From positions 644,731 to 708,730 of the forward strand of contig OZ252250.1 in assembly GCA_965249675.1 (NCBI GenBank): a stretch of 64,000 nt of DNA, read 5' to 3'. The notes under the pieces are model-generated. The model was not told the origin of the DNA. It did not search any database and saw only the letters and a program-made list of their open reading frames with translations. The translations under genes and the position numbers were made by a program. The DNA comes from Dehalococcoidia bacterium. Its GTDB lineage: Bacteria; Chloroflexota; Dehalococcoidia; UBA2979. Below, one piece after another: positions 8,805-45,327 of this stretch. Each line of letters opens with the position of its first letter. Position 1 is the stretch's first letter.

Positions 8805-8840
8805 GTTTGCCCTCCTGAACCGATGTCGAAGGGAAGTCCA

Positions 8841-9893: not shown

Positions 9894-9926
9894 CACCGAG
9901 AGCGACGGGCCCGCGGCGCAGGGGGT

Positions 9927-23135: not shown

Positions 23136-24404
23136 TCACCCCAGTTCGATCGCTGCCCGCTCCTCAAACACGATGCCGCGCTCAACCAGCCCGTCGAGTT
23201 GGTTCTCGCTGGTCCCCAGGAGCTCGGACAACACCTCTCGGCTGTGCTCCCCCATGTCGGGGGAGGTGCCCTTGATCCCGCCAGGCGTCCGCGACATTCG
23301 GACCGGCGTGTTCGGTAGCGGAATCGATCCGAGCGTGTGGTGTTCGACCGGGACCAGCATCTCTCTGGCGGCGACCTGCGGCAGCGCCGCCGCGGTCGGG
23401 ATGTCGTTGAGTGGGCCGCACGGAATCCCGTAGCGCTGGAGCGCTTCCACCCACTCGGCAGTCGTCCGACCGGCGAGGGCCCCGGTGAGCAGCCGCTCCA
23501 GCTCCGGATGATGCCACGAGCGCTCCTGGGCCGTCGAGAAGCGTGGGTCGTCGATCAGCTCGGGCAGCTCCAGCTCGGCGCAGAGTAGCCCCCACTGGTT
23601 GGGCACGCCCCATGAGAGGGCGATCACGAGGTGCCCGTCGGCGGTCGGGAATGCCTGGAACGGGACCGCCGTCGGATGTCGCGTCCCGAGCTTCTCAGGC
23701 GTCTTGCCGGTCACGTGGTAGCGCATGTAGGCGTTCTCGAGCACTGCCAGCTGACAGTCGAGCATCGAGATGTCGACGAGCTGGCCACGGCCGGAGCGCT
23801 CTCGCTCCCGCACCGCGGCCAAGATGCCGACAGCGCAGTAGAGCCCGGCTGCCAGATCCCCCAGCGAGAAGCCGGGACGGATCGGACCGCCGCCCGGCTC
23901 GCCCGTGATCGACATCACACCACCGGCCCCCTGCACAACCACATCGAGCGCCGGCAGAAGGCGCATCGGTCCGGTCTGCCCGTATCCGGAGATCGCCGCG
24001 TAGACGAGGCGCGGGTGAAGCACCGACAGCGCCTCATAGCCGAGGCCGAGGCGATCCATGGCCCCCGGTGTGAAGTTCTCAACGAGCACATCGACCTCGC
24101 CGACCAGCTCTCGGAAGAGTTCCTTGCCGGTGTCCGATTTGAGGTCGATGGAGAGCGAGCGCTTCCCGCGGTTGACCGAGAGGAAGTAGCCCGACTCGCC
24201 ATCGACGACAGGACCTGTCGTGCGCGACACATCGCCCCAGGGGGGCCGCTCGAGCTTGATCACGTCTGCACCGAGATCGCCCAGCGTCATCGTCGCGAAG
24301 GGCCCGGAGAGCACCCAGGTCAGATCGAGGATTCGCAGTCCCGCCAGGGGACCGGTGGTGGGAAGTGCCGGCATCGTCGGAGGCTCCTCGCTACGACCGC
24401 TCAA
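23136..24404 (-). CDS. CoA-transferase family III (CaiB/BaiF)
   Basis: N-terminal LAGLRILDLTWVLSGPFATMTLGDLGADVIKLE Rossmann motif and catalytic Asp region. 422 aa. Confidence 0.85.
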   Translation of the reverse strand: MSGRSEEPPTMPALPTTGPLAGLRILDLTWVLSGPFATMTLGDLGADVIKLERPPWGDVSRTTGPVVDGESGYFLSVNRGKRSLSIDLKSDTGKELFRELVGEVDVLVENFTPGAMDRLGLGYEALSVLHPRLVYAAISGYGQTGPMRLLPALDVVVQGAGGVMSITGEPGGGPIRPGFSLGDLAAGLYCAVGILAAVRERERSGRGQLVDISMLDCQLAVLENAYMRYHVTGKTPEKLGTRHPTAVPFQAFPTADGHLVIALSWGVPNQWGLLCAELELPELIDDPRFSTAQERSWHHPELERLLTGALAGRTTAEWVEALQRYGIPCGPLNDIPTAAALPQVAAREMLVPVEHHTLGSIPLPNTPVRMSRTPGGIKGTSPDMGEHSREVLSELLGTSENQLDGLVERGIVFEERAAIELG

Positions 24405-24549: not shown

Positions 24550-25413
24550 GTGCAACTGGGAGTGGTCTTTCCGCAGACGGAGATCGGAGCCGATCCGGCG
24601 GGCGTGCGAGACTACGCGCTCGCCGCCGAGGCCGCCGGCTACGAGCACCTGCTCGCCTACGACCATGTGCTCGGCGCCGACCCCGGTCGGCCGGGCGGCT
24701 TCCGTCGCCCCTACACGCACGAGTCCCTCTTCCATGAGCCACTCGTGCTCTTCGGCTTCCTGGCCGCCCTGACCGCCCGCCTCGAGCTCGTGACGGGCAT
24801 CCTGATCCTGCCGCAGCGGCAGACCGCGCTGGTCGCCAAGCAGGCAGCGGAGGTCGACGTCCTCAGTGGTGGCCGGCTGCGCCTCGGGATCGGCGTCGGC
24901 TGGAATGCCGTCGAGTACGAGGCGCTGGGCGAGGAGTTCGGCAATCGCGGCCGGCGCGTCGAGGAACAGATCGCGCTCTTGCGCCAGCTCTGGGCGGAGC
25001 CGGTGATCACGTTCGCCGGGCGGTACCACACGATCACGCGTGCCGGCCTGAAGCCGCTGCCGCCCGGCCGCTCGATTCCCATCTGGATCGGCGGAATGTC
25101 CGATCGCGTGAAGGAGCGACTGGGCCGACTCGGCGACGGATGGTTCCCGCAGTACCAGGACCCGGCACAGCTGGCCGCGGGCGTCGCCGAGATCCGCGAA
25201 GCGGCCCTGGCGGCAGGGCGTGACCCCGAGGCGATCGGGATCGAGCCGCGGCTCAACCTGACCGACGACCTCTCGGCCGACACCGCGCTGGCAGAGAGGT
25301 GGCGCGAGGCCGGCGCCACCCATCTCTCCGTCAACACGATGGGTCGTGGGCGCGAAGGCGTCCGCCAGCACATCCTCGCGATCGAGCGGTTCAAGGCCGC
25401 CTACCCGCAATAG
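24550..25413 (+). CDS. LLM-class F420-dependent oxidoreductase (~287 aa)
   Basis: VQLGVVFPQTEIG...LRLGIGVGWN...IWIGG typical of LLM F420 oxidoreductases. GTG 24550 with AAGGGGG RBS. The ORF track's 5' extension to 24220 is antisense to the neighbouring gene and rejected. Confidence 0.8.
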   Translation: MQLGVVFPQTEIGADPAGVRDYALAAEAAGYEHLLAYDHVLGADPGRPGGFRRPYTHESLFHEPLVLFGFLAALTARLELVTGILILPQRQTALVAKQAAEVDVLSGGRLRLGIGVGWNAVEYEALGEEFGNRGRRVEEQIALLRQLWAEPVITFAGRYHTITRAGLKPLPPGRSIPIWIGGMSDRVKERLGRLGDGWFPQYQDPAQLAAGVAEIREAALAAGRDPEAIGIEPRLNLTDDLSADTALAERWREAGATHLSVNTMGRGREGVRQHILAIERFKAAYPQ

Positions 25414-25433: not shown

Positions 25434-26753
25434 TTGACAACCACGGCAGAGCCGCAACTGGACTGGAACGCACTGACCGAGGAGGCCACGGCATGGCTCT
25501 CCGACTACATCCGCGTCGACACCGTCAACCCACCGGGGAATGAGACCCGTGCCGCGCGGTGGTTCGCCGAGATCCTCGATGCCGAAGGGATCGAGTATCA
25601 GACCTTCGGCCGCACCGACAGCCGGCAGAGCCTGGTCGCCCGGTTGCCGGGCGACGGCTCACGGGGCGACGCGCTGATCCTGCTCAACCACACAGACGTC
25701 GTCCCGTTCGAGATCGAGCACTGGACGAAGGAGCCGCTCGCCGGCGAGGTCAGCGATGGCTTCATCTGGGGCCGCGGCGCCGTCGACATGAAGGGGATGG
25801 GGATCATGGAGTTCGTCTCCTTCCTCCTCCATCACCGCTACAACCTCCCGCTCAAGCGAGACCTGGTGTTCATGGCCGCTGCCGATGAGGAAGCCGGATC
25901 GGACTACGGGGTCGAGTTCTTCGACCGCGAACACCCCGAATTGCTCAAGTGTGACTACGTGATCAATGAGGGGGCCTGCGGAACGGTCGACATCCTCGGT
26001 AAGGAGCGGCCCACCTTCAACATCGGCGTCTCCGAGAAGGGCCCCTTCTGGCTGACGCTGCGCACCACCGGCAGGCCCGGCCACGGCTCGGTGCCGACCG
26101 ACGACAACGCCGCGGTGCGGCTCGTGCGGGCGCTCGATCGCATCAGCGAGTGGGAGCGGCCGCTCCTGCCGACGCCGGTGGTGAGCGAGTATTTCCAGCA
26201 GCTTCACGACCATGGCGTCCTGGACGAACCACCGAGCGAAGAGGTGCTCGCCCGCCTGGCCGAGCAGCACCCGCGCCTCAGATCGCTCCAGACGAACTCG
26301 ATCTCACTCACGATGCTCGATGCCGGCGTCAAGATGAACGTCATCCCCGCCCACGCCACGGCCACCCTGGATTGCCGGTTGGTGCCGGGCTACGACCGCG
26401 AGCAGTTCATCGAGGAGCTGCGCAGCGTGATCGACGACCCTGAGGTGGAGATCACGCGCGAATTCGAGTCATCGACCGAACCGTCCACCATGGACACCGA
26501 GCTCTACCGGTTGATGACCGCCACGGCGAAGGATGCGGTCGAGGACGCGATCGTCGTGCCGAGCGTCTCGACCGGCTTCACCGACTCCAGGGTCTTCCGG
26601 CGGCGGGGTGTTCCGGCCTACGGCTTTATCCCGGTCCTGCTCGGACCGGAGGAGAACGGTACCGCCCACGGCAACGACGAGTGTCTCTCGATCGAGAATC
26701 TGCGGATGGGGATCCAGATCCTGCACCGCACGATCCGCGGCATCTGCGGGTAA
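25434..26753 (+). CDS. M20 family metallopeptidase (ArgE/DapE/CPG2-like)
   Basis: LLNHTDVVP, GRGAVDMKG, AADEEAGS metal-ligand motifs and the dimerisation domain. TTG 25434 follows a GGAGGG RBS. Confidence 0.85.
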   Translation: MTTTAEPQLDWNALTEEATAWLSDYIRVDTVNPPGNETRAARWFAEILDAEGIEYQTFGRTDSRQSLVARLPGDGSRGDALILLNHTDVVPFEIEHWTKEPLAGEVSDGFIWGRGAVDMKGMGIMEFVSFLLHHRYNLPLKRDLVFMAAADEEAGSDYGVEFFDREHPELLKCDYVINEGACGTVDILGKERPTFNIGVSEKGPFWLTLRTTGRPGHGSVPTDDNAAVRLVRALDRISEWERPLLPTPVVSEYFQQLHDHGVLDEPPSEEVLARLAEQHPRLRSLQTNSISLTMLDAGVKMNVIPAHATATLDCRLVPGYDREQFIEELRSVIDDPEVEITREFESSTEPSTMDTELYRLMTATAKDAVEDAIVVPSVSTGFTDSRVFRRRGVPAYGFIPVLLGPEENGTAHGNDECLSIENLRMGIQILHRTIRGICG

Positions 26754-26789
26754 CCGGGCGCCGCAACCGGGCCGGGCCCTCGCCTGGCT

Positions 26790-27569
26790 CTACTCGCCGG
26801 GCTCAACCGTGAAGCGGCCGCTATCGGAGCGCCCGAATACCTCGGGGAAATAGGTCTCCTGGGCATGCGTGGGGGCGACGAAGAAGTCGTCTGGCGCCGT
26901 GGCGCGCGCGTAGTAGACGTACTCGTGGACACCTCTCGGGAGCCGCGCGGCGTGCAGCGTCAGCCGGTCGTCGCGAATGTCTACCTGGTCCCAGGGGCTG
27001 TAGTACCAGCGGTACCAGGGGGCGGCGTACGACTGCCCGCCTCCCTGGACGGCCTCCGCGCGCTCTGCCTCAAGCTGCCGCTTGAGCCAGTCGGAAACGA
27101 TGTTGAGGCGCGGATCGATGGGCTCCAGCCCGGCGGGCAGGAAGTCCTCGACCCTGGCGAAGAGGCGGTCGGCCGGCGCCACCATCGTCACGGTCACCCG
27201 CACCACGTCGCCTAGCCGGACAGTCGTGACCGCTCGGTCAGGCTCATCAAGGAGCGAATAGCGATGAGAGACCGAGAAGCCGCGGTTGAGCGCCTCAACC
27301 TCGCTCGCCGGGGTCAGGTATCTGAGGTTGAGGCCGTAGTACATGCGCCCTGGGCCGCTCGTGTCTCGCTCGAACTGAAGGCGGGCCACCTCGCCGAGCG
27401 GCAGCTCCCCGAGCGCGACCAGCGCACCGTCGCGATCGTCGCCCCCGGGTACGTCAAAGTGGCCCTGGAGCAGCTGGCGGGTGTCCAGCCAGACCGCGTA
27501 GTCGTAGACCCCCCGGGTTAGGCGCCGGATAGCGTCTCGCCCCCGGGCATCACACCCGCCGATCGCACC
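26790..27569 (-). pseudogene. Stand-alone alpha-2-macroglobulin C-terminal (MG/receptor-binding-like) fragment of ~200-260 aa; the rest of the usually >1500-aa protein is absent
   Basis: DIRDDRLTLHAARLPRGVHEYVYYARATAPDDFFVAPTHAQETYFPEVFGRSDSGRFTV matches the bacterial A2M C-terminal consensus (D.RDDRV.LF...L..G.H...Y..RA..PG.F..PP..AE.MYYPE). The open frame runs to a TAG at 27570-72 and the first start codon is GTG 27389. No upstream A2M ORF exists. Confidence 0.55.
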
Positions 27570-27605
27570 CTACCGCGTTCTCGGGGGGCTTACCGGTCCG
27601 ACCTG

Positions 27606-28487
27606 TCAGGGCTGGTGGACGGCGACGAGCCGATCGAGCACCTCCCGCAGGTCGGACTCACTGAGCGGGCCGAACGCCCGGTCGCCGGCAGTGTCGGGAC
27701 CGCTATTCGGCGGCACGGTCGCAAATGCCGGGTGGCGGGCCACGCCCATCTCCCCCGCCAGGGAGCGCTGGTCACGATCATCGAAGTCGAGGATCACGAA
27801 GTTGACTTGTGATTGGTATTCCAGCCTGAGCCCGTTCACGACGGGCCGCGTCAACGCGCAGGACGGTCACCAGATGGCATCGACGAAGACCAGCGTCGCT
27901 TTCCCGTTGGTCGGGAGATAGGCCCCGGTGTGGTCCACGTAGTCGGTCGGCAGTTCGTAGTCGGCCGAGATCGTGCGGGCCGGTCCGGTTGGGAAGTCGT
28001 AGACGACCGCCGGCTCGGGGGTTGCGGTCGCTCCGGGCGTCGGCGTTGCGTGCACCAGTGTCGGCGTCGCCGTCGGCACGGCAGTGGCCGGCGTCGCTGT
28101 CGGCGCGGCTGGTGCCCCAGTGGTCGGCGTCGCTGTCGGCGCGGCTGGTGCCGCAATGGTCGGCGTCGCTGTGGTTGCCGCCGTGGCCGGTGCCGGCGTC
28201 GCCGCCGGCGTCGTCACCCCGGCCTGGGTCGACTCTACGGTCGGCGCCGCCCGGGCGGCCGTCGTCTGTTGCGGTGCCGAGGGCGCCGTCGGCGCCTGGC
28301 TGCTCGCCTCTGCCGTGGAGGTCTCGGTCGCCCGCCCTGCCGCCGGCGTTCCGACGGTCTCTGCGGTCGCGGCCGTTGCAACCGGGCTCACCGCCGCCGG
28401 AGCATCGTCACCGCCGCCGCTGCAAGCCAGTGACGCCACCACGACCAGCACACCAGCCAGCCACGACGCGCGCCGCACGTCGCCCAT
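27606..28487 (-). CDS. Thioredoxin-fold lipoprotein with in-frame TGA at the first Cys of the CxxC motif (W-[TGA]-P-S-C): candidate selenocysteine UxxC thiol-disulfide oxidoreductase, or opal-disrupted pseudogene
   Basis: Signal peptide plus lipobox (MGDVRRASWLAGVLVVVASLAC|SGG) and an Ala/Thr/Pro-rich tandem-repeat linker. The thioredoxin fold (TLVFVDAIW-TGA-PSCALTRPVVNGLRLEYQSQVNFVILDFDD...HPAFATV...) continues in the same frame across TGA 27867-69. Confidence 0.6.
27830..27858 (-). ncRNA. Two hairpins 9-37 nt downstream of the in-frame UGA (candidate bacterial SECIS-like element)
   Basis: mRNA: UGA CCGUCCUG [CGCG-UUGA-CGCG] [GCCCGU-CGUGA-ACGGGC]. Second hairpin has a perfect 6-bp stem with a G/U-containing 5-nt apical loop ~27-31 nt after UGA. 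Confidence 0.3.
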
Positions 28488-28574
28488 GGTCGAACTCCCG
28501 GCAGCCAACAGAGAGGCGCACAGTGGACCGCCCACCAGACGATCAGTCTATGTCAGTCCCCTGGCAGGTCACAG

Positions 28575-29450
28575 TTAGGGCACCCGACTCCTCGCCCATC
28601 GGTCTCCCAGCAGATGCTTGGCGAGCTCTGACCCGCCCGGCGCATCGGGGTCGTCCTTGAACCGTTCGAGCCGGCGATAGACATCGGCCGCCGCCCGGTG
28701 GAAGCCGTCGGGCAGCTGGTTCGCCTCAAAGGTCTGCGCCATCTCCTCCATCTCGCCGACGAAGCGCCACGCCTTGGCGGCCGCGACGGGTAGACCTCGC
28801 CGGGAGCGCTCGAGCAGCTGTGGCTGGGACTGCTCCCACTCCTCGGTGAGCGGCTCGAGTACGCCCTCGGCGAGGGCCAGCGCCCAGATGTTCGCGAGCA
28901 GCGCACTCGTACCCTTGGTCCATGCTGAATAGGCCATCTTCAGAGCCGAGGCGGCGCCGATACGGTTGCCCATGCATCTCACGCCGAGGTCCCCGCCACT
29001 GAGTAGCAGCGCCACCTGCTCGGCCTGGTCGCCCGAGAGATAGAGTCGGGTCGATCCGGGTTGCCGGGCCGGGGGACCGATAAGGCTGCCATCGACGTAG
29101 CTCCCGTGGTTTCGCTCCACGATCTCCCCGATCGCGCGAGACGTCTCGGGTGCAATCGCGTTGGCGTCGACGTAGATCCCGCGGTAGCCAAGCCCGCAGA
29201 CCTCCTCGGCAACGTCCGTCGCGAATTCCGGCGGACAGACCGAGATGATGACGCGGCTCTGGTTCACGAGCGCGTTGAGCCAGAAAACGTCCTCAAGCCC
29301 GTCCGCCTCGGCACGCGCCACCGACGCCTCGCTACGCCCCTCGGAGACCCAGGCCACGCGCACCCCGGAGGCCTTCGCCGCCGCACCGATCGAAGAGCCC
29401 ATTGCCCCCGGATGGAGGAGTCCGACCGTGGTCACATCAGGATCCTGCAT
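28575..29450 (-). CDS. NAD(P)-binding oxidoreductase, 6-phosphogluconate/3-hydroxyisobutyrate dehydrogenase-like N-domain with DUF1932-like C-domain
   Basis: VGLLHPGAMGSSIGAAA Rossmann motif. Start ATG overlaps the stop of the upstream MBL gene (GCTGATGCAG). Confidence 0.7.
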   Translation of the reverse strand: MQDPDVTTVGLLHPGAMGSSIGAAAKASGVRVAWVSEGRSEASVARAEADGLEDVFWLNALVNQSRVIISVCPPEFATDVAEEVCGLGYRGIYVDANAIAPETSRAIGEIVERNHGSYVDGSLIGPPARQPGSTRLYLSGDQAEQVALLLSGGDLGVRCMGNRIGAASALKMAYSAWTKGTSALLANIWALALAEGVLEPLTEEWEQSQPQLLERSRRGLPVAAAKAWRFVGEMEEMAQTFEANQLPDGFHRAAADVYRRLERFKDDPDAPGGSELAKHLLGDRWARSRVP

Positions 29451-30349
29451 CAGCCCGTCTCCGCACGGAAGGTCTCGTAGAGGTTGCCGATGTTCATCTC
29501 CTTACGTTCGGCCTCGGGCCACTTCGCCCAGTCCCCGATGTCGATCGCGCGGGCGGCGTCGGCCTCGGACAGGCCATTCTCGAAACAGTCCCTCGCCCGA
29601 TCGACCATGAACTCCATGAACTCCTGCATGTCCTGGAGCTGCCGCTTGCCGCCGGGCGGACCGTGGCCGGGGATGATGGTCTCCACGTCCATGCCGCGGA
29701 TCAGGTCGCAGATCCGCACCCAGTTGGGCATGTCGCCGCGGCACAGGGGCATTGCGTAGAAGAAGGCGAGGTCACCTGTGAACAGCACCTTCGCCTCGGG
29801 AAAGTAGACCAGTGAATCGCCGAGCGTGTGGGCCGGCCCATGGTGGGAGAGCCGCGCTTCCCGCTGCCCGTAGTGCAGGGTCAGACGGCTATCGAAGGTG
29901 GTCTCCGGCATGACCGGATGCACGTCAGCCAGCTCTTCCCACCACGAGTCCTGGATCCAGAACGGCCGGGGACCGCGATCCCCGGGCGCCCTGGCGCGCG
30001 CCTGTTCGCGGGCGAACTCGTCGGCGGCCACCATCTCCCGGCGGCAGCCTTCGGAGGCGACGATCTCCGCCCCCTCGATGAACTGGTTGCCGTTCGTATG
30101 GTCGGCGTGCATGTGCGTGTTGACGAGATGGCGAAATGGCAGTGGGCTGATCTCCCGCATCGAGCGGACGAAGGCGTTGGTCATCTGGGGGGCCATCAGG
30201 GCGTCGATCACGAGCAGCCCCTCTTCACCGACGGCGAAACCGGCGTTGCTGATGCCCCAGCCACCATCCCACTGCAGGTAAGCGTAGAGATCCTCGCCGA
30301 CCTCAACGGGGCCGGTCTCGTAGGCGGGCATCGGGTGGTAGGTCGTCAT
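29450..30349 (-). CDS. MBL-fold metallo-hydrolase
   Basis: HxHxDH motif (NTHMHADHTNG) and downstream His/Asp ligands. Preferred start at MTTYHP; the track ORF extends to 30484. Confidence 0.8.
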   Translation of the reverse strand: MTTYHPMPAYETGPVEVGEDLYAYLQWDGGWGISNAGFAVGEEGLLVIDALMAPQMTNAFVRSMREISPLPFRHLVNTHMHADHTNGNQFIEGAEIVASEGCRREMVAADEFAREQARARAPGDRGPRPFWIQDSWWEELADVHPVMPETTFDSRLTLHYGQREARLSHHGPAHTLGDSLVYFPEAKVLFTGDLAFFYAMPLCRGDMPNWVRICDLIRGMDVETIIPGHGPPGGKRQLQDMQEFMEFMVDRARDCFENGLSEADAARAIDIGDWAKWPEAERKEMNIGNLYETFRAETG

Positions 30350-30523
30350 GGCGTGCTCCTCCCGCCGGAAGATAGCAGCGCCGTCGACTGGCTGCCGTCC
30401 CGGGTGGTGGGGATGCCCTCCAGATGCCGTGCCGGACGCCCGAAGTGCACCGGACGCCGAGATGCGGCGGGGGCTCCGCCGCATCTCATGCGCCCGGGGG
30501 GCGGCTGCGGTCTGGCTCGCTCC

Positions 30524-32188
30524 CTAGTGAGCAGCGCTCGTCAACCAACCAAACTTCTGCGGTTTCCGCTTGGCATCGGCGGCGATCGGCACGTTGATCA
30601 GGGATGGTCGGTCAAGCGTGAGCGCCTCGGCCAGCGCGGCATCGAGCTCCTCGATCGTTTCGGCGTTGTAGCCGACGCCTCCCAGGCCCTCCATCATCAC
30701 GTCGTAGCGGGCGGCCGGATTCATCGCACCGGGCGGCACCATACCGCTGTCGATCTGCTCCTGAGTGTGGCCACCAATCCCGCCGTTGTTGAAGACGACC
30801 CAGACGATCGGCAGGCCGTAGCGGACGGCCACCTCGCACTCGGTGCCGGCGAAGCCGAATGCCGCGTCCCCCTGCAGGCAGAGGATCTTGCGATCCGGGT
30901 GCTCAACGGCCGCCGCCACGGCGAAACCGTGTCCCAGACCCATAGACCCGAACGAACCGGCGTCGAGACGCGTGCGCGCCTCGTAGTTGTTGAGCACCGT
31001 CCTGCTGATGTCCATCGTCGAAGCGCCCTCGGCAACGATGATCGCATCGTTCGGTAGCGCATTGTCGATCGACTTCAGGGCGGGGTAGTACTGCAGCGGT
31101 GTCGAGTGATCGGCGTACATCGCCTCGATCGCCTCGGCGTTCTGGCGAGCCTCGGCCCTGACGGAGTTGAGCCACTCAGAGTCCTGCGGGAACTGCCACG
31201 GCTCCTCATCAAGGGCATCGAGCAGCTGCCCGAGCGTCGCCCTGGCGTCGCCAATCATCGCCACCTCGGAGGGGACGTTGACGCCGATCTCCTCGGGGTT
31301 GAAGTCGAGCTGCACGACCCGCACATCCGCGCGGAAGCGCGGCGGCAACCCGAAGTGCAACATCCAGTTGAGCCGGGCGCCGGCCAGGAAGATCAGGTCG
31401 GCGTTGGAGAGCACGAACGATCGCGCCGCTGCGGCCGCCTGCTCGTGGTCGTCCGGGAGAATGCCCTTGGCCATCGGCATCGCCAGGTAGGGGATGCCGG
31501 TCGCCTCGACGAAGCGGCGCATCTCGGCCTCGGCGCGTGAGGCGGCGATCCCCTTACCGATGATAATCAGCGGCTGTTCGGCGCTCTTCAGTGACTCGAG
31601 CGCCGCCTGCACGTCGCTGGGATCGGACATCAGCCGACTGGCGTCGGGCACGCGCGGCGCCCACTGGACGTCCTCCTCCTCCACCTGGCCAGTGATGACG
31701 TCACCGGGCAGATCGAGGTAGGCGGGCCCCGGAACACCCATGAGGGCCTTCTTGACGGCCTCAGCGATGTAGATCGGGAGGCGCTCGACCGACTCCGCTC
31801 GCTTGGCGTACTTGGCATACGGCGCCATCGCCGCCACCTGCTCGGCCTCCTGAAAGAAGCCCATGTCGACACCGCTCTGCTCACCGGCGCCGCCGAGCAA
31901 GAGCAGCGGCCAGCGGTTCGACCAGGCGTTGGCGAAGGCGGCGACCGCGTTCAGGGCGCCCGGGCCGGAGACCAGGAGTGCCGCGCCGATGCGGCCGGAG
32001 ATGTAGGAGCTGGCCTGCGCAGCGTAGGTCGCCGGCATCTCGTGCCGCATCCCTACGTAGTTGATGCCCTCACGCTGGGCCGAGCCCGCGATGATGGCGA
32101 CGGGGATACCGACCACCCCGTACATGTTCTTGACACCCTGCGTCTTGAGCGCCTTCGCGATGATCTGGTGCCCGCTGATCTTGCCCAC
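30524..32188 (-). CDS. oxc: Oxalyl-CoA decarboxylase (ThDP-dependent)
   Basis: Full-length similarity to Oxc: N-terminal ThDP PYR domain (MYGVVGIPV...GPGALNAVAAFANA), ThDP binding (LQGDAAFGFAGTE...NNGGI), C-terminal YDVMMEGLGGVGY. GTG 32188 with GGGAGG RBS gives ~555 aa. Confidence 0.85.
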   Translation of the reverse strand: MGKISGHQIIAKALKTQGVKNMYGVVGIPVAIIAGSAQREGINYVGMRHEMPATYAAQASSYISGRIGAALLVSGPGALNAVAAFANAWSNRWPLLLLGGAGEQSGVDMGFFQEAEQVAAMAPYAKYAKRAESVERLPIYIAEAVKKALMGVPGPAYLDLPGDVITGQVEEEDVQWAPRVPDASRLMSDPSDVQAALESLKSAEQPLIIIGKGIAASRAEAEMRRFVEATGIPYLAMPMAKGILPDDHEQAAAAARSFVLSNADLIFLAGARLNWMLHFGLPPRFRADVRVVQLDFNPEEIGVNVPSEVAMIGDARATLGQLLDALDEEPWQFPQDSEWLNSVRAEARQNAEAIEAMYADHSTPLQYYPALKSIDNALPNDAIIVAEGASTMDISRTVLNNYEARTRLDAGSFGSMGLGHGFAVAAAVEHPDRKILCLQGDAAFGFAGTECEVAVRYGLPIVWVVFNNGGIGGHTQEQIDSGMVPPGAMNPAARYDVMMEGLGGVGYNAETIEELDAALAEALTLDRPSLINVPIAADAKRKPQKFGWLTSAAH

Positions 32189-32648
32189 TCTGCCTCCCAG
32201 TCTGCTGATGAATCTCGTCCAGGTAACCGTCACCCCAGCTCGGGTCGGCACGCACGATGCTGATGATACACGTCCGCCCCACTTCGCGCGGCCCCTGTCC
32301 GCTCTGGCGCGGACGCCGTATCGGCCCCGGCTTGAGGAACTCCGTCTGCGCCCCGGGGCGGGGCGCCGGCTCGCGTCGAGACGGGCATCCAGTCGCCCTG
32401 CTGGCCGCCGGCCCGGCTCGGCTGTGGAGGCTGTTGTCCTCGTTCTCCTTCTTCCTCCGTGCGCTCTGACTTGCGATCACTGCGCCCTGAGCCGGCTGGC
32501 GAGTACGCTACCGGGAGCGGTGCTGTCGATCGGCCACGAGGCCGGGTGGTGCGCACCGGCCGGAAGCGGAGGCCGCACCACTACCGCCCCGTGCCACCAA
32601 GAAGGAGCAAGGGGTCGGGCGGACGACAGCCACAGTGGGAGTGTGCCA

Positions 32649-33869
32649 ATGGCCCGTCCGGACCTTGACCCGCCGAGCGGCGAGGGAGAGCCGCGCTCGG
32701 CCCTGAGCGGCATCCGCATCTTGGACTTCACCCGCTACCAGCAGGGTCCGTTCGCGACGATGCTGCTCGCCGAGATGGGCGCCGAGGTGATCAAGGTGGA
32801 GGAGCCCGGGGGAGAGCCCGGCCGCGCCAACGGGCGGGACGCGAGCGGGTTCTCCGCCTACTTCGAGGGATACAACCGCAGCAAGAAGTCGATGACGCTG
32901 AACCTGCGCACCGATCGAGCGCGCGATGTTGTCCGCCGCCTCGTCCCGAGCTGCGACGCCATCGTCGAGAACTTCCGACCCGGCCAAATGGAGCGCTGGG
33001 GCCTCGGCTACGAGGATCTGCGCGAACTGCACCCCACCATCATTGTCGGCTCCGGCTCCTCGTGGGGACGCCACGGGCCGTGGGCCAACCGACCGGGCTA
33101 CGACCACGTCGGGCAGGCACTGAGCGGCATCATGTACGAGCAGGGCGAGGGGCCGGGCGGCGAACCGCACGCCCTGGTCGGGGGGTTTGCCGACCAGATC
33201 GGGGCGATGCTGCTCGCCTTCGGCGTCAGTACAGCGATCGTCGCTCGCGAGCGGTTCGGGGTCGGTCAGCACGTCGATGTGTCGCTGATCGGCGGGATGA
33301 CGGCGCTCCAGTCGATGCAGTTCACGCGCTACTTCCGGACCGCCTTCCAGAGCGGCTTTCAGCGGCGCCGGGCCGCCACCTACACCAACTACGAGTGCCA
33401 GGACGGCGGGCACATCGCCATCGCCGCCAACACACAGCGGTTCTGGGAGCGTCTCTGCGAGGCGATCGGACACCCGGAACTGCGGACGGATCCGCGGTTC
33501 TCGAACCCATTCGGGCGCGCCGAACACAAGGACGAACTGGTCGCGACGCTCGGGTCGATCTTCCTCGAGCGGCCACTGGCGGACTGGCTCGAGCCGATCA
33601 GCTCGGCGGATGTCCCGAACGCCCCGGTGCTCGACTACGCGGGCGTGACCGAACATCCCCAGTTCTGGGCGAACGACTACTTCCAGGAGATCACCCACGC
33701 CCAGCTCGGTCCGATGCGTGTCCCCGGTCCCCCCGTGCAGATGAGCGAGACCCCGCCCCAGATCAGGGGCGGCAGCCCTGAACTGGGTATGCACACCGAG
33801 GAACTCCTGCTCGAGGCGGGCTACGACTGGCCAGAGATCAGCGAGCTCCGCGACGGCGGGGCGATCTAG
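32649..33869 (+). CDS. CoA-transferase family III, divergent from oxc (candidate formyl-CoA:oxalate CoA-transferase, Frc/YfdW-like)
   Basis: LSGIRILDFTRYQQGPFATMLLAEMGAEVIKVE family III motif. ATG 32649 after a GGGAG RBS. ~400 bp shared divergent leader with oxc. The 5' extension in the ORF track is rejected. Confidence 0.8.
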   Translation: MARPDLDPPSGEGEPRSALSGIRILDFTRYQQGPFATMLLAEMGAEVIKVEEPGGEPGRANGRDASGFSAYFEGYNRSKKSMTLNLRTDRARDVVRRLVPSCDAIVENFRPGQMERWGLGYEDLRELHPTIIVGSGSSWGRHGPWANRPGYDHVGQALSGIMYEQGEGPGGEPHALVGGFADQIGAMLLAFGVSTAIVARERFGVGQHVDVSLIGGMTALQSMQFTRYFRTAFQSGFQRRRAATYTNYECQDGGHIAIAANTQRFWERLCEAIGHPELRTDPRFSNPFGRAEHKDELVATLGSIFLERPLADWLEPISSADVPNAPVLDYAGVTEHPQFWANDYFQEITHAQLGPMRVPGPPVQMSETPPQIRGGSPELGMHTEELLLEAGYDWPEISELRDGGAI

Positions 33870-33871
33870 CG

Positions 33872-34531
33872 GTGGCGACACCCCGAATCGACATCGTCGT
33901 CTTTGATCTGGGCGGGGTCCTCGTCGAGATCGCGAGGGACTGGCGCGAGGCTCACTCCCTGGCCGGCCTCGGGCCGGGCCATCCAGGCCTCGCCTCGGCG
34001 GCCTTCCACGAGCACGGCCCAAAGCTGGCCGATGCCCATCAGCGCGGCGAGATGACGCCCCCCGAGTGGGCTCGTGCCATCTCCCAGGCCTCCGGGGGTG
34101 CCTACAGCGAGGCCGAGGCGATCAGCATCCTCGATGCCTGGACCATCCGCGAGTACCCGGGCATCGTGAACGTCATTGACGCGATCCACGACGCGGGCCT
34201 GGCCACCGCCGCGCTCTCCAACACCAATGCCCGCCACTGGGAGCTGCTCGGCGTGACCGGCGGAGACTTCAGAAACTACCCGACGCTCCAGCGGATCGGG
34301 CAGCTCCATGCCAGCCACGTGCTCGGGGCGATCAAGCCCGACCGCGAGATCTTCGAGGCCTTCACCGGCGCTGCCGGCCTCGGGCGAGCGAGGGTCCTCT
34401 TCTTCGACGACCTCTCACCCAATGTCACAGCGGCAAGGCGTTACGGCTGGGCCGCCCGCCAGATCAACCACCTGGGCGACCCGGCGGCGCAGATGATGGC
34501 CGCCCTCAGGCAGCACCGGATCGTCGACTAG
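33872..34531 (+). CDS. HAD-superfamily hydrolase (subfamily IA-like)
   Basis: Motif I DIVVFDLGGVLV, motif IV FFDDLSPN. Starts 2 nt after the CoA-transferase stop. Confidence 0.75.
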   Translation: MATPRIDIVVFDLGGVLVEIARDWREAHSLAGLGPGHPGLASAAFHEHGPKLADAHQRGEMTPPEWARAISQASGGAYSEAEAISILDAWTIREYPGIVNVIDAIHDAGLATAALSNTNARHWELLGVTGGDFRNYPTLQRIGQLHASHVLGAIKPDREIFEAFTGAAGLGRARVLFFDDLSPNVTAARRYGWAARQINHLGDPAAQMMAALRQHRIVD

Positions 34532-34553
34532 ACCCTCGGGCGACCGGCCGCGG

Positions 34554-36113
34554 CTACGGGCGTGTGCCCCTCGCCTTCGGACCGACGATCACCCCAAGCG
34601 AACGATAGACCAGCTCTACCCACTCGCAGAGCAGCGGTCTCGTATCACGAGGATCGATGATGTCCTCGATGTTGAACGCCTCGGCGGTCCGGAACGGAGA
34701 CCGCAGCGCGTTGAGGTTGGCCTCGATCTCCGCGCGACGCGCATCCGGATCCGGCGCCGCCTCGATGTCGCGCCGGTAGGCCGCCATCACACCACCCTCG
34801 ATCGGTAGCGAGCCCCAGTCTCCCGACGGCCAGGCAATCCGGTAGTTCCAGCGAGAGTGGTTCTGATGCCCGGCGCCCGCCACGCCGTAGGCGCGCCGCA
34901 CGACCACCGACGCCCATGGCACCACCGCCTGGTTGACGGCCGCCAGCGCGCGCACACCGCGGCGGGCGACACCGGACGACTCGGCAGCAGTGCCGAGCAT
35001 GAAGCCGGGTTGATCGACGAAGTTCACGACCGGCAGGTTGAAGGTGTCAAAGAGATCGACGAAGCGAGCGAACTTGTCTGAGGCCGCTCCGTCCATCGAC
35101 CCACCGAGTTTCGTCGGGTCGTTGGCCAGGATGCCGACCGGGCGGCCGCCGAAGCGCGCCAGGCCGACCACGAGCGACGGACCGAAGTGTCGCGCGATCT
35201 CGAAGAAGCTGTCGCGATCGACGATCAGCTCGAGTAGCTTGCGAATGTTGTGCGGGCGGCGACGGTCGCGCGGGATGACCGACAACAGCTCTTCCTCGCG
35301 ACGGTCGGCCGGGTCGGAGGCGTCGCCCACGGGCGGCAGTTCCCATGCGTTGGATGGCAGGTAGGAGAGGAACTGCCGGATCTGCTCGAACGCCTCCTCC
35401 TCGCTGTCGACCTCGTTGTCGACCACACCACTCCCGTGCGCATGAATCTGAGAGCCGCCCAGTTCCTCTTTCCCGATCGGCTTGCTGAAGGCGCGCTCGA
35501 CAACGGGCGGTCCGGCGATGAAGACCTGCGAGTTCCCCTTGATCATGATCGAGAAGTGACTGGCCGCCACCCGCGCCGCGCCGATCCCGGCAATCGACCC
35601 CAGCGCCGTCGCGATCATCGGAATCTCGGACATTGCGTTCACCAGCGTGTCCCAGTTGGTATTCCCGGGGATGTAGGTCCGCCCGATGTCCTCGATCGTC
35701 TTCACCGACCCGCCGCCGCCGGTGCCGTCCACCAGCCGAATCACCGGGACTCGCAGCTCGCGTGCCATCCGCTCGGCGTGGCCGGCCTTGCCGCCGACCG
35801 CCCCGTCGGCTGCTCCACCGCGCACGGTGAAATCATCGCCACCGGCCACCACCGGCCGGCCGTCGATCTTCGCGACGCCCATCACGTAGTTGGAGGGGAT
35901 GAAGTCGCTCAGCGAGCCGTCTTCGTCATAGGTCGCTTTTCCGGCCAGCACCCCGCGCTCACGGAACGTGTCACGGTCGACGAGGAGCTCCATCCGCTCG
36001 CGCACCGTCAGGTGACCGCGATCGCGGTGACGCTGCACGCGATCGGGGCTACCCATGCGGTGGGCGATCTCGCGCCGTCGTTCGAGTTCGTCGACCTCAG
36101 CCTGCCAGACCAT
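34554..36113 (-). CDS. Acyl-CoA carboxylase carboxyltransferase subunit (PccB/AccD5/transcarboxylase 12S-like)
   Basis: Two crotonase-like CT halves (GGSMDGAASDKFARFVDLFDTFNLPVVNFVDQPGFMLG and the N-terminal GRPVVAGGDDFTVRGG). 519 aa. Confidence 0.9.
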   Translation of the reverse strand: MVWQAEVDELERRREIAHRMGSPDRVQRHRDRGHLTVRERMELLVDRDTFRERGVLAGKATYDEDGSLSDFIPSNYVMGVAKIDGRPVVAGGDDFTVRGGAADGAVGGKAGHAERMARELRVPVIRLVDGTGGGGSVKTIEDIGRTYIPGNTNWDTLVNAMSEIPMIATALGSIAGIGAARVAASHFSIMIKGNSQVFIAGPPVVERAFSKPIGKEELGGSQIHAHGSGVVDNEVDSEEEAFEQIRQFLSYLPSNAWELPPVGDASDPADRREEELLSVIPRDRRRPHNIRKLLELIVDRDSFFEIARHFGPSLVVGLARFGGRPVGILANDPTKLGGSMDGAASDKFARFVDLFDTFNLPVVNFVDQPGFMLGTAAESSGVARRGVRALAAVNQAVVPWASVVVRRAYGVAGAGHQNHSRWNYRIAWPSGDWGSLPIEGGVMAAYRRDIEAAPDPDARRAEIEANLNALRSPFRTAEAFNIEDIIDPRDTRPLLCEWVELVYRSLGVIVGPKARGTRP

Positions 36114-36262: not shown

Positions 36263-36490
36263 CTAGTCGGGACGATCGAGGCGAACGAGCAGCCCGCCTT
36301 CGTCCACGTAATCGTCCACGGCGACGGAGATCTCGGCGACCGTACCTGCCGCCGGCGCCTCGACCGGAGTCAGCATCTTCATCGACTCCAGTGTGACCAG
36401 CTCATCGCCGTCGGCAACGACGGCTCCGGCGGTGACGTGGATCTCGGCCACCCGGCCCGGCCACTCCGCGACTACCTCGATCGTTGCCAT
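36263..36490 (-). CDS. Biotin carboxyl carrier / biotinyl-domain protein (75 aa)
   Basis: Biotin attachment motif ESMKM in a lipoyl/biotinyl hybrid fold. Immediately upstream of the carboxyltransferase on the same strand. Confidence 0.8.
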   Translation of the reverse strand: MATIEVVAEWPGRVAEIHVTAGAVVADGDELVTLESMKMLTPVEAPAAGTVAEISVAVDDYVDEGGLLVRLDRPD

Positions 36491-44913: not shown

Positions 44914-45327
44914 CTATGCGGGCACGAACACCGGCACCGGGTACTCCCCGTCGTCCTGCTCCTCGAACTGGACGCGGACGCGCTGGCCGCAGGAGACATC
45001 GGCGAGCGGGTTGTCGACTCCGGTGACGTTGCTCATCATCCGGAACCCCTCATCGAGGTCGATGTAGGCCAGGGCGTAGGCACCGAGGTCGGCGAAGGCC
45101 GGGTTCCGGTTCTGGCGGACCACCGAATAGGTGTAGACGGTTCCCTCACCGGCTGAGACCTTCCACTCAAGGTCGTCGCTTCCGCAGGCGTTGCAGTTGC
45201 TGCGGGGGTAGAAGACGACCTCGTTGCAGGCCGAGCACTGCTGGTAGGTGAGCTCGCCACGCTTGCATGCGTCCCAGAAGGGCTGCGTGTCGGGCTCGGG
45301 GAATTGCGGCATCGATCGGTTTGGCAT
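44914..45327 (-). CDS. Zn-ribbon/OB-fold protein DUF35 (thiolase-associated, SCP-x partner)
   Basis: CxxC...CxxC rubredoxin-like ribbon (CSACNEVVFYPRSNCNACGS) followed by an OB fold. ATG 45327 after GAGGAG. Sits 25 nt downstream of the thiolase. Confidence 0.75.
   Translation of the reverse strand: MPNRSMPQFPEPDTQPFWDACKRGELTYQQCSACNEVVFYPRSNCNACGSDDLEWKVSAGEGTVYTYSVVRQNRNPAFADLGAYALAYIDLDEGFRMMSNVTGVDNPLADVSCGQRVRVQFEEQDDGEYPVPVFVPA

Follow-up and report, generated by a model that had tools for sequence, protein, structure and literature searches.

A Dehalococcoidia locus built around a 2-hydroxyacyl-CoA lyase, probably devoted to CoA-transferase-fed cleavage of 2-hydroxyacyl-CoA rather than to oxalate

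The window, meaning the whole 64-kb stretch of Dehalococcoidia DNA that was analysed, contains a minus-strand run of genes separated by a divergent intergenic region from a CoA-transferase and a HAD hydrolase (Table 1). Every gene listed in an earlier note on this DNA was recovered at or near its reported position, the family assignments were correct, and the gene set is indeed non-canonical. The note had also described overlapping genes and 40-nt gaps: the metallo-hydrolase (MBL) stop and the DUF1932 start do overlap by one base (TGATG), but gaps of 40 nt appear only with alternative starts. With the MBL start at 30349, which both the alignment of orthologues and independent gene predictions on contigs 99.4–99.9% identical support, the ThDP–MBL gap is 174 nt, and it shrinks to ~40 nt only with an Arg-rich upstream ATG (30484); the DUF1932–thioredoxin gap is 87 nt (ATG 28487) or 39 nt (GTG 28535). 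On the other strand, the HAD gene begins 2 nt past the CoA-transferase stop. Searches of the region for Rfam families, sigma-70-like promoters and intrinsic terminators came back empty, and the 64-kb window as a whole lacks tRNA genes.

Table 1. Genes and sequence features of the locus (window positions).
Feature	Position	Strand	Basis or remark
bMG10 (A2M) fragment	26790-27389	-	PF17973 sole Pfam match
Thioredoxin-fold (TlpA-like) lipoprotein, 293 aa, predicted selenocysteine in W-U-P-S-C	27606-28487	-	in-frame TGA, coding conserved on both sides
UGA codon, predicted selenocysteine	27867-27869	-	gives W-[TGA]-P-S-C
SECIS-like hairpin GCCCGU-CGUGA-ACGGGC	27830-27846	-	stem begins 21 nt 3' of UGA
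NAD(P)-binding 6PGDH/HIBADH-like protein, DUF1932 C-terminal domain	28575-29450	-	PF09130
MBL-fold metallo-hydrolase (HxHxDH), 299 aa	29450-30349	-	PF00753
ThDP enzyme, 2-hydroxyacyl-CoA lyase type	30524-32188	-	three ThDP domains (Pfam)
Divergent intergenic region, 460 bp	32189-32648	strandless	between ThDP gene and CoA-transferase
Family III (CaiB/BaiF) CoA-transferase, not Frc	32649-33869	+	PF02515, 391 bits
HAD-IA hydrolase, atypical motif I FDLGGVL	33872-34531	+	PF00702
Acyl-CoA carboxyltransferase subunit (MmdA/PccB-like)	34554-36113	-	PF01039; convergent with HAD
Biotin carboxyl-carrier protein, 75 aa	36263-36490	-	PF00364; upstream of carboxyltransferase; gene call on near-identical contigs

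The ThDP enzyme, previously read as an oxalyl-CoA decarboxylase (Oxc), misses both NCBIfam Oxc equivalogs (520.7 against a cut-off of 557, and 487.9 against 739.4). Among PDB entries it ranks first with CfhHACL/S (8vzk, 912 bits), followed by RuHACL (535), EcOxc (413) and OfOxc (360); it is 71% identical over its full length to CfhHACL/S, whose source gene is locus L047, and ~40% identical to EcOxc. The match to NF058623 is also below cut-off (299 against 600), and the 2-hydroxyisobutyryl-CoA lyase clade reaches 221 bits in the PDB. At the catalytic Tyr-Glu of Oxc the enzyme carries Phe-Gln, the swap that separates HACL from OXC (PMC7154664), with Gly at Oxc Tyr483 and a C-terminal lid that is shorter than, and unlike, the Oxc lid bearing Ser553. 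Because it falls below the Oxc cut-offs, ranks with the HACL/S enzymes and has Phe-Gln and Gly at the catalytic positions, the protein is a predicted 2-hydroxyacyl-CoA lyase of the HACL/S subfamily, not an Oxc.

These comparisons make a variant oxalate locus very improbable, that is, one in which the ThDP enzyme would decarboxylate oxalyl-CoA made by a family III transferase, and the MBL protein would hydrolyse formyl- or oxalyl-CoA. The enzyme does belong to the Oxc/HACL superfamily, its best NCBIfam match by name is Oxc, Oxc and HACL share a common ThDP intermediate and are both promiscuous (PMC7154664), and no oxalyl-CoA test of the HACL/S clade was found in the literature surveyed. However, characterised HACL/S enzymes resemble it far more than any Oxc does, and mutating the Tyr-Glu/Tyr483-type catalytic residues abolishes Oxc activity (PMC8411744), such mutations cutting it by orders of magnitude. 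Oxalyl-CoA decarboxylation by human HACL proceeds at <1 per min, whereas OXC reaches 98 per s (PMC7154664).

The transferases give the oxalate reading little more. The divergent enzyme scores 211 against the Frc equivalog (cut-off 504), with only its N-terminal half aligned, and shares 29% identity with EcFrc and 32% with EcYfdE; in the PDB it comes closest to SUGCT, YfdE and 10uh (185–202 bits). The window does hold the four further family III CoA-transferases reported earlier: 51290-52546 and 52543-53808 (confirmed by Pfam), the truncated 8-874 (identified by BLAST) and 23136-24404 (matched by NCBIfam family III models below their cut-offs). The last is 42% identical to the E. coli acetyl-CoA:oxalate CoA-transferase YfdE, which would suit an oxalate locus, but the match to that model is again below cut-off (328 against 522). 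The proposed oxc/frc pairing fails, as none of the five window transferases is an Frc orthologue (22–34% identity), and no oxalate:formate antiporter was found nearby in the window. As a positive control for Oxc/Frc recognition, the same scan recovered a genuine Oxc–Frc pair at L066, in which the Oxc motifs are present and the Frc shares 62% identity with EcFrc.

Nor does the MBL protein resemble a known MBL thioesterase, as the formyl- or oxalyl-CoA thioesterase role suggested for it would lead one to expect. Its AlphaFold model (pLDDT 95.5) resembles an uncharacterised Burkholderia MBL (8d2z, TM 0.78), chlorothalonil dehalogenase (Chd, 0.74) and alkylsulfatases (0.65–0.73); neither glyoxalase II nor another MBL thioesterase was named among the 50 Foldseek matches listed, and a SoxH-related model gave 129 bits against a cut-off of 280. 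Of the earlier chemistry, formyl-CoA is retained and oxalate as the substrate is not.

Gene order was surveyed across 70 Dehalococcoidia loci, upstream counts being taken over 45 and downstream counts over 43. Relatives carry a fuller cluster, CarbT / HAD-CoAT / thiolase-DUF35-HACL-ACAD-MBL, of which the window is a reduced version lacking Thl-DUF35 and ACAD. In many relatives the position of the 460-bp intergenic region holds thiolase-like and DUF35 genes, as in L004, where ORFs 8298-9476 and 9469-9900 separate CoAT from HACL. Thl-DUF35 lies upstream of the lyase in 14/45 loci and an ACAD within 6 kb downstream in 25/43; L047 itself has ACAD and DUF1932 downstream. The MBL gene follows the lyase, usually past an ACAD, in 12/43 loci and is a recurrent partner of the lyase cluster. 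Orthologues of the CoA-transferase (66–81% identity) diverge from the lyase in 12/45 loci, and the CoAT-HAD pair is conserved in those 12; elsewhere HAD alone is divergent from the lyase (16/45). The HAD motif I Asp+2 is Gly in 11/12 orthologues. Carboxyltransferase orthologues occupy the matching position in five loci, and L111 lacks both this gene and the lyase block, so the carboxyltransferase (319 bits to the mmdA subfamily model, below cut-off) is a possible member of the block.

Shared position may, of course, be no more than inherited chromosomal synteny, the lyase working with unlinked partners, and CoAT, HAD, MBL, DUF1932 and thioredoxin each doing an unrelated job. We consider this rather unlikely. 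Gene content in and around the cluster varies between species: L109 has five unrelated genes between the ThDP gene and DUF1932, L111 keeps the backbone without the lyase block, the lyase stands without any partner in many loci (e.g. L020, L027, L034, L036), and distant MBL (45–51% identity) and DUF1932 homologues occur in unrelated or other contexts. Since family III CoA-transferases are dense here (5 in 64 kb), chance adjacency is likely, and we estimate that it could account for a CoA-transferase beside the lyase in ~40% of cases. On the other hand, L111 suggests that CarbT-HAD-CoAT-lyase-MBL is gained or lost as one block; HACL-ACAD-MBL persists in a separate lineage of 45% GC as closely packed genes on one strand, with housekeeping genes on either side; non-orthologous family III transferases repeatedly adjoin the lyase directly (L009, L024, L048-50, L056, L060, L061); and the closely spaced and overlapping genes of the window point to co-transcription.

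L111 also bears on the genes downstream of MBL. There DUF6941-DUF1932-M20 peptidase-CoAT-gltB is intact and the whole BCCP/CarbT-to-MBL block is absent. As DUF1932 and the thioredoxin keep their place without the lyase block, these two and the M20 peptidase are probably backbone neighbours and not pathway members. The supposed oxc-MBL-DUF1932 synteny recurs (MBL as above, DUF1932 in 15/43 loci, no further than 6 kb downstream of the lyase) without implying a shared pathway for DUF1932, and the same locus argues against the suggested reductase and extracytoplasmic redox partner. For DUF1932, whose best PDB match is 1i36, the exclusion is uncertain because of its 1-nt overlap with MBL and its operonic arrangement with a Thl-DUF35 pair on a Rokubacteria contig. 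The bMG10 fragment is an isolated C-terminal remnant of a bacterial alpha-2-macroglobulin, outside the cluster: it is absent from 70/70 related loci and present only in near-identical strains; in strain L104 an integrase (rve) gene was called in that stretch in place of bMG10.

The thioredoxin lipoprotein, earlier marked with a queried selenocysteine, looks like a real selenoprotein, with W-U-P-S-C as its predicted motif. The TGA is kept in 37/40 orthologous loci, two others having TGC and one being a degenerate copy, and 13 full-length Cys homologues show WCPxC, PF00085 and an ACS lipobox. Database fragments of the protein end or begin at the TGA, appearing as two 'hypothetical proteins'. TGA is an ordinary stop in 10/31 confident window genes, so the genetic code is not reassigned. 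Across the 37 Sec-form sequences the hairpin pairs in 94.8% of cells, against at most 47% in slid controls, with compensatory changes in three of its six pairs and 0/500 shuffles reaching the observed value; it is broken in both Cys-form genes. The earlier guess is thus strongly supported, and the protein would be a TlpA-like thiol-disulfide oxidoreductase that is exported and has selenocysteine in place of the first active-site Cys, inserted through the UGA and downstream hairpin. Selenocysteine-containing thioredoxin-fold proteins (Trx-like 1 / thiol-disulfide isomerase-like cd02966; PMC2398784, PMC13188914) likewise have UxxC at the CxxC position, Cys homologues, a bacterial-type SECIS with apical-loop guanosines just downstream, and a marine and metagenomic distribution; unlike them, this is a Dehalococcoidia lipoprotein with a long Pro/Thr/Ala linker.

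For the lyase block itself, the divergent family III CoA-transferase would convert a free 2-hydroxy-carboxylic acid to its CoA thioester without spending ATP, perhaps taking CoA from formyl-CoA as happens in the Frc/Oxc cycle. The ThDP enzyme would then split C1–C2 of the 2-hydroxyacyl-CoA, releasing formyl-CoA and leaving an aldehyde shortened by one carbon, as suggested by CfhHACL/S, which has been shown in the reverse, condensing direction; the formyl-CoA may be recycled by the transferase or hydrolysed. Because Thl-DUF35 and ACAD are absent, the route in this window may be truncated or of another kind, and the window showed no enzyme, for example a PhyH-type dioxygenase, that could supply the 2-hydroxyl group.

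The lyase could instead run synthetically, joining formyl-CoA to an aldehyde in detoxification or C1 assimilation, with the CoA-transferase freeing the 2-hydroxy acid. HACL/S enzymes, active with formyl-CoA and C1–C3 aldehydes, were selected and characterised for condensation, CfhHACL/S being assayed only in that direction and only with C1–C3 aldehydes (PMC11271303), and SAR202 has C1-oxidation genes (Landry et al., PMC5395668). Nevertheless, this direction is highly unlikely, given that the KM values quoted for both formaldehyde and propionaldehyde are millimolar or higher (PMC11271303), that the partners in relatives (ACAD, thiolase-like/DUF35) are catabolic, and that no formyl-CoA-generating enzyme, e.g. 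an acylating formaldehyde dehydrogenase, was found in the window.

Cleavage of a CoA-transferase-fed 2-hydroxyacyl-CoA thus remains the preferred reading, and several known systems resemble it in part. The HACL/S enzymes, three of the crystallised ones coming from the same phylum, share the subfamily and the Phe-Gln and Gly signature; they are known as condensation-direction biocatalysts, and the literature surveyed gave neither a physiological role nor a gene context for these enzymes. Oxc/Frc systems (O. formigenes, E. coli oxc-frc-yfdE) have in common the ThDP superfamily, the family III fold, the formyl-CoA product and plausible ATP-free CoA recycling, but the window lacks the Oxc catalytic Tyr-Glu/Tyr, an Frc orthologue and the oxalate/formate antiporter. 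The actinobacterial 2-hydroxyisobutyryl-CoA lyase–HCL ligase cluster of Actinomycetospora chiangmaiensis (PMC7176365, PMC8760513) also has a ThDP lyase that converts a CoA-activated 2-hydroxy acid to formyl-CoA and a carbonyl; its lyase is of a distant clade, an ATP-dependent ligase takes the place of the CoA-transferase, and cleavage yields a ketone (acetone). Peroxisomal alpha-oxidation (PhyH and HACL1) involves the same lyase reaction, with Phe-Gln as in human HACL1, but the window has no phytanoyl-CoA dioxygenase, the tested relatives of its lyase act on C1–C3 aldehydes, and its family III CoAT, HAD and MBL have no peroxisomal counterpart.

The pairing of lyase and generic CoA-transferase is found in many Dehalococcoidia (SAR202-type) Chloroflexi and is of a kind already described, SAR202 having putative alpha-oxidation genes that include a 2-hydroxyphytanoyl-CoA lyase (Landry et al. 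2017, PMC5395668). The composition of the fuller cluster would fit a route for branched or 2-hydroxylated acids in which alpha-oxidation alternates with beta-oxidation, and in these SAR202-like Chloroflexota the HACL/S-centred block probably serves CoA-transferase-fed 2-hydroxyacyl-CoA cleavage, not oxalate catabolism.

The three-domain ThDP enzyme at the centre of the locus, which the earlier note had named oxalyl-CoA decarboxylase (Oxc), is on sequence grounds a 2-hydroxyacyl-CoA lyase of the HACL/S type, and not an Oxc. It matches PF02776, PF00205 and PF02775 above the Pfam cut-offs, a fold that is common to the whole superfamily and therefore non-discriminating for Oxc. It reaches neither of the NCBIfam equivalog cut-offs for Oxc, scoring 520.7 bits with NF006721 (cut-off 557) and 487.9 bits with TIGR03254 (cut-off 739.4). 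Ranked against all PDB sequences, its nearest relatives are characterised HACL/S enzymes, rather than Oxc or HICL: 8vzk (912 bits), 8vzd (657), 8vzj (642) and 8vzc (590), the 8vz entries being the HACL/S enzymes of PMC11271303, and RuHACL (6xn8, 535). Lower scores were obtained with the Oxc structures from E. coli (413 bits), M. extorquens (~376) and O. formigenes (360), and with the actinobacterial 2-hydroxyisobutyryl-CoA lyase, AcHACL (221).

The active site points in the same direction. In alignment, the E. coli Oxc motifs GDYEELDQ and NNGGIYRG correspond to GFFQEAEQ and NNGGIGGH in the window protein, whose C-terminal lid is shorter than that of Oxc and unlike it; the Phe-Gln motif GFFQE is common to the window protein and the three Dehalococcoidia homologues aligned with it. 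The Tyr-Glu pair replaced here is Y120-E121 of OfOxc and Y134-E135 of MeOXC, with Tyr483 equivalent to MeOXC Y497 (residue roles: PMC8411744, PMC7154664). In Oxc these residues (Tyr, Glu, Tyr and Ser) hold catalytic waters, and their replacement removes Oxc activity (PMC8411744). The active-site floors of OXC and HACL are identical except for the change of Tyr-Glu to Phe-Gln in human HACL, and oxalyl-CoA is decarboxylated at 98 per second by OXC and at <1 per minute by HACL (PMC7154664); Gln113 is the corresponding residue in Dhc/TbHACL/S (PMC11271303). For CfhHACL/S, encoded at the related locus L047 and 71% identical to the window enzyme, 2-hydroxyacyl-CoA chemistry with formyl-CoA and aldehyde has been demonstrated (PMC11271303), and by analogy we infer that the window protein would act as a lyase on 2-hydroxyacyl-CoA. 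By contrast, the appearance of a real oxalate locus in this data set is that of L066, an alphaproteobacterial locus from the same scan, in which a ThDP enzyme (39% identical) keeps the Oxc motifs and the next gene encodes a transferase with 62% identity to E. coli Frc.

Neither is the divergent family III (CaiB/BaiF) CoA-transferase the formyl-CoA transferase (Frc) of an oxalate pair. It covers PF02515 at full length (391 bits, profile positions 1-366), and scores 210.9 bits with the Frc model TIGR03253 (cut-off 504.2), where the best aligned stretch takes in only residues 17-220, in the N-terminal half. Its identity is 29% with EcFrc and 32% with EcYfdE, and the structures nearest to it, scoring 185-202 bits, are those of human SUGCT, YfdE and a 409-aa “formyl-CoA transferase” that is unpublished; its catalytic Asp region, RPGYDHVGQALSG, aligns with APAYDTIIQAMSG of YfdE. 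The proposal that one of the four further family III transferases may supply the second transferase activity of the pathway gains no support, as all five in the window are 22-34% identical to EcFrc and none is an Frc. The best YfdE-like member (23136-24404, 42% identity) stays under the YfdE model cut-off and scores 250.8 bits against the Frc cut-off of 504.2. Given these low identities and sub-threshold scores, the substrates of the transferases are not assignable by homology.

All of the genes listed in the earlier note are present, as confirmed by a six-frame ORF list with Pfam and NCBIfam scans.

Genes of the lyase locus and expanded paralogue families in the window
Feature	Position	Strand	Remark
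bMG10 domain, isolated	26790-27389	-	alpha-2-macroglobulin domain
Thioredoxin-like ORF	27606-28487	-	one in-frame TGA (27867-27869); predicted full product 293 aa
DUF1932 NAD(P)-binding protein	28575-29450	-	
Metallo-beta-lactamase (MBL)-fold hydrolase	29450-30349	-	
Three-domain ThDP enzyme (lyase, 554 aa)	30524-32188	-	
Family III CoA-transferase	32649-33869	+	divergent from ThDP enzyme, 460 bp between
HAD hydrolase (HAD-IA)	33872-34531	+	coupled to CoA-transferase
Carboxyltransferase subunit	34554-36113	-	
Biotin carrier	36263-36490	-	75 aa
Luciferase-like paralogues	8823-9893, 24556-25413, 46679-47635, 53832-55061		
CoA-transferase paralogues	8-874, 23136, 32649, 51290, 52543		
MBL paralogues	29450, 39528, 41805		

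The overlapping stop and start described previously is also found, the stop codon of MBL having one base in common with the start codon of DUF1932. The reported 40-nt gap between lyase and MBL genes holds only for an Arg-rich upstream ATG (~40 nt); the MBL start that is supported both by orthologues and by gene calls made independently on contigs of 99.4-99.9% identity leaves 174 nt. Across the whole window, Rfam at gathering thresholds matched neither a riboswitch nor a SECIS family, and a simple scan of 26500-34800 gave no sigma-70-like promoter or intrinsic terminator, so operon boundaries are drawn from spacing alone. The isolated bMG10 domain occurs in 0/70 related loci and only in near-identical strains; in strain L104 an integrase (rve) gene call takes its place in that stretch. 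The domain has the look of a remnant, left at a hot spot of rearrangement. At the other end of the locus, the carboxyltransferase subunit and biotin carrier have no biotin carboxylase nearby, and could belong to a decarboxylase-type complex or depend on an unlinked carboxylase.

Conservation of the arrangement was assessed in a one-genome-per-species scan that yielded 70 loci, nearly all from Dehalococcoidia, SAR202 or Chloroflexota MAGs, whose neighbourhoods were compared by tblastn, the queries being the window proteins plus four additional reference proteins. In the fullest arrangement (e.g. loci L002 and L007), the carboxyltransferase gene is followed on the opposite strand by HAD and CoA-transferase, then on the original strand by a thiolase-like/DUF35 pair, lyase, acyl-CoA dehydrogenase (ACAD), MBL, DUF1932 and thioredoxin, and finally by an M20 peptidase in the reverse direction. 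Downstream of the lyase, 43 loci extend for 4 kb or more; of these, 25 have ACAD within 6 kb, 15 DUF1932, 12 MBL and 8 thioredoxin. Upstream, 45 loci extend for 4 kb or more, of which 16 have HAD, 14 the thiolase-like/DUF35 pair and 12 the orthologous divergent CoA-transferase. Counting all loci at any flank length, the gene immediately 3′ of the lyase is ACAD in 21 and MBL in 4. A separate lineage of 45% GC carries a tight co-directional run of HIBADH-like, lyase, ACAD and MBL genes, followed by gapA and eno. The window thus contains a reduced form of the cluster, the 460-bp spacer standing in place of the thiolase-like/DUF35 pair and the 174-nt spacer in place of ACAD. A second thiolase-like (Thiolase_C_1) and DUF35 pair does occur in the window (44926-45300 and 45353-46537, -), and is a paralogue and not the missing orthologue, as it is 31-32% identical to the lyase-upstream pair of the relatives.

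The synteny of lyase, MBL and DUF1932 anticipated earlier is found in part of the relatives, but DUF1932 looks like a backbone gene. In locus L111 the backbone is that of the window flanks (Sortilin-like, SIR2, and further on AhpC/TSA, DUF6941, (GNAT), DUF1932, M20 peptidase, CoA-transferase and gltB), while the whole stretch from biotin carrier and carboxyltransferase through HAD, CoA-transferase and lyase to MBL is missing; in L109, the ThDP gene and DUF1932 have five unrelated genes between them. From these two loci, DUF1932, thioredoxin and M20 peptidase behave as backbone neighbours, and the carboxyltransferase/biotin carrier, CoA-transferase-HAD, lyase and MBL genes appear to come and go as one unit. 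Against the backbone reading of DUF1932 stand its overlap with the MBL stop codon in the window and a Rokubacteria homologue that is operonic with a thiolase-like/DUF35 pair; against the unit reading, the lyase is alone in many loci. Non-orthologous family III transferases adjoin the lyase directly in L009, L024, L048-50, L056, L060 and L061. A further caveat is the density of CoA-transferases in these genomes, five in 64 kb, at which chance adjacency is common.

The MBL protein, proposed earlier to be a thioesterase, is without specific sequence or structural similarity to one beyond the common MBL fold, leaving that assignment unsupported. It carries the HxHxDH motif, and its best family match is a SoxH-related metallohydrolase model (129 against a cut-off of 280). 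The closest Foldseek match to its predicted model (pLDDT 95.5) is 8d2z, an uncharacterised Burkholderia MBL (TM 0.78), with chlorothalonil hydrolytic dehalogenase (Chd) at TM 0.74, alkylsulfatases at TM 0.65-0.73, and class B lactamases also among the top matches. The 50 Foldseek matches listed name neither glyoxalase II nor any other MBL thioesterase, and sequence comparison with glyoxalase II gave 24.5 bits in the PDB search and 22.5 against an NCBIfam cut-off of 200.8. Homologues at 45-51% identity adjoin FAA-hydrolase and cupin, or luciferase-like and SDR genes, and no lyase; none of the distant homologues of MBL and DUF1932 checked had a lyase neighbour. Literature searches on PDB 8d2z, 10uh or 9zav gave irrelevant matches only.

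In HAD phosphatases, the residue at the Asp+2 position of motif I is the general acid/base. The HAD protein of this locus is atypical in that motif I reads FDLGGVL, with Gly at this position in 11/12 orthologues and the canonical DLD kept in the L001 orthologue. A motif I without the second Asp is as found in dehalogenases, and a 2-haloacid dehalogenase producing 2-hydroxy acids was considered; it found no support, given the phosphatase-type DD of motif IV and a score of only 20 bits with TIGR01428. The DUF1932 protein is 6PGDH/HIBADH-like, its nearest structure being the uncharacterised MTH1747. A homologue (55% identity) in the Rokubacteria contig L108 (5016-8409) lies in a co-directional run of 2-hydroxyacid dehydrogenase, DUF1932, thiolase-like and DUF35 genes, a hint that thiolase-like/DUF35 pairs may be the working partners of DUF1932 proteins.

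The thioredoxin-like lipoprotein, flagged with a query as a possible selenocysteine (Sec) protein, emerges as a well-supported predicted selenoprotein. The ORF reads ...TLVFVDAIW-TGA-PSCALTRPVV..., placing the TGA at the first Cys position of a WCxxC motif. Across 40 orthologous loci, including the window, this codon is TGA in 37 and TGC in two, with one degenerate copy; the genome loci have TGA in 9/10 and TGC in one, and the 29 metagenome loci comprise 27 intact TGA forms, one TGC and one TGA with an extra stop codon. Approximately 85 conserved codons follow the TGA in all of them. Protein databases hold 13 full-length Cys homologues (153-196 aa), one named a “TlpA family” protein and all but one matching PF00085; the nine placed in the alignment share WCPxC and an ACS lipobox. 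A further 13 database entries are partial, either stopping at ...FVDAIW or beginning just beyond the TGA, gene callers splitting the gene into 218-aa and 77-aa pieces on near-identical contigs. Shortly downstream of the UGA, a SECIS-like hairpin (stem GCCCGU/ACGGGC, loop CGUGA/C with an apical G) spans +24 to +40, the stem starting 21 nt past the UGA. In the 37 Sec-form sequences 94.8% of its cells are paired, against at most 47% in slid controls, with compensatory double changes in 3/6 pairs and a covariation value reached by 0/500 shuffles; in the two Cys-form genes it is reduced to 2-3 of 6 pairs. A reassigned genetic code was rejected as the source of the in-frame TGA, since TGA is an ordinary stop in 10/31 confident window genes. 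No tRNA gene is found in the window, nor any sel gene among the window proteins scanned. UxxC thioredoxin-fold selenoproteins are well documented, Trx-like and thiol-disulfide-isomerase-like families from marine metagenomes among them (PMC2398784, PMC13188914), so the window protein belongs to a known kind.

Several smaller observations concern the same gene. In a comparison of Sec forms with Cys forms (L096 and L062), the stretch over the hairpin encodes RPVV(N/H)GL in Sec forms and RPIFH(D/K)L in most Cys forms, and the protein sequence seems to be under constraint from the RNA structure; L096 has TGC, yet keeps RPVVHSL, and may be a recent Sec-to-Cys conversion. Metagenome locus L093 (~4139-4150) has a second stop codon three codons past the TGA and a diverged upstream motif, and is probably in decay. 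Inside the Pro/Thr/Ala linker of the lipoprotein lies a tandem repeat (28082-28172, -; 36-nt unit, 2.5 copies, 94% matches), and the N-terminal piece of 218 aa in near-identical strains, against 206 codons here (ATG 28487 to TGA), fits repeat-number polymorphism.

Beyond the locus, the paralogue expansions are interleaved with housekeeping genes (class II RNR, gltB, purE), and expansions of luciferase-like, CaiB/BaiF and MBL proteins are typical of SAR202-like Chloroflexota. An IS-type transposase (DUF772 + DDE_Tnp_1; 48802-49749, -) lies in the window, and DUF772/DDE_Tnp_1 or IS110-type transposases lie at other positions in related strains (L072, L104), so that insertion elements appear active in the population. 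The closest contig, at 6.98 Mb and ~68% GC, is large for Dehalococcoidia.

With these results the oxalate interpretation of the locus falls; what remains is a HACL-type lyase block and a well-supported selenoprotein, both of already known kinds. In the block, the divergent CoA-transferase would activate a 2-hydroxy acid as its CoA thioester, the lyase would split the 2-hydroxyacyl-CoA into formyl-CoA and an aldehyde one carbon shorter, and the formyl-CoA would be recycled by the transferase, or hydrolysed. The thiolase-like/DUF35 and ACAD genes of the relatives suggest that branched or 2-substituted acids undergo beta-oxidation with alpha-oxidation steps interleaved, in keeping with the expansion of CaiB/BaiF and the alpha-oxidation genes reported for SAR202 (PMC5395668). 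The wider content of the window (five luciferase-like monooxygenases, five CoA-transferases, three MBLs and two MFS transporters) agrees with such a lifestyle. No PhyH-type hydroxylase was found near the cluster among the window proteins scanned, and literature searches found nothing linking SAR202 specifically to the cluster or to selenoproteins. A bolder and rather unlikely reading is that the block recurring across Dehalococcoidia (carboxyltransferase/biotin carrier, HAD-CoA-transferase, and thiolase-like-DUF35-lyase-ACAD-MBL) encodes a bacterial route of alpha-oxidation, so far undescribed, that would act on branched or 2-substituted acids of refractory organic matter in the sea. The Chd/alkylsulfatase-like MBL would unmask or release a 2-hydroxy acid present as sulfate ester, halide or lactone, and the family III CoA-transferase and lyase would run a formyl-CoA-recycling cycle analogous to Frc/Oxc; if true, this would be a native role for bacterial HACL/S enzymes.

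HACL-type genes are routinely named “oxalyl-CoA decarboxylase”, including in PDB entries, and marine and groundwater Chloroflexi could thereby be credited with a potential for oxalate degradation; by their active-site signature, such genes encode HACL-type lyases. The selenocysteine lipoprotein, which appears in the databases searched as two split “hypothetical proteins”, is likewise a clean example for annotation correction, and its predicted Sec codon would indicate selenium use in the lineage. HACL/S enzymes are central to engineered one-carbon pathways, and the literature covered presents them as biocatalysts only, with no native role found there for the bacterial forms. The recurrent partners of the lyase, comprising the CoA-transferase with its atypical HAD, the thiolase-like/DUF35 pair, ACAD and MBL, provide a testable gene set for that role, and bear on the alpha-oxidation capacity proposed for SAR202.
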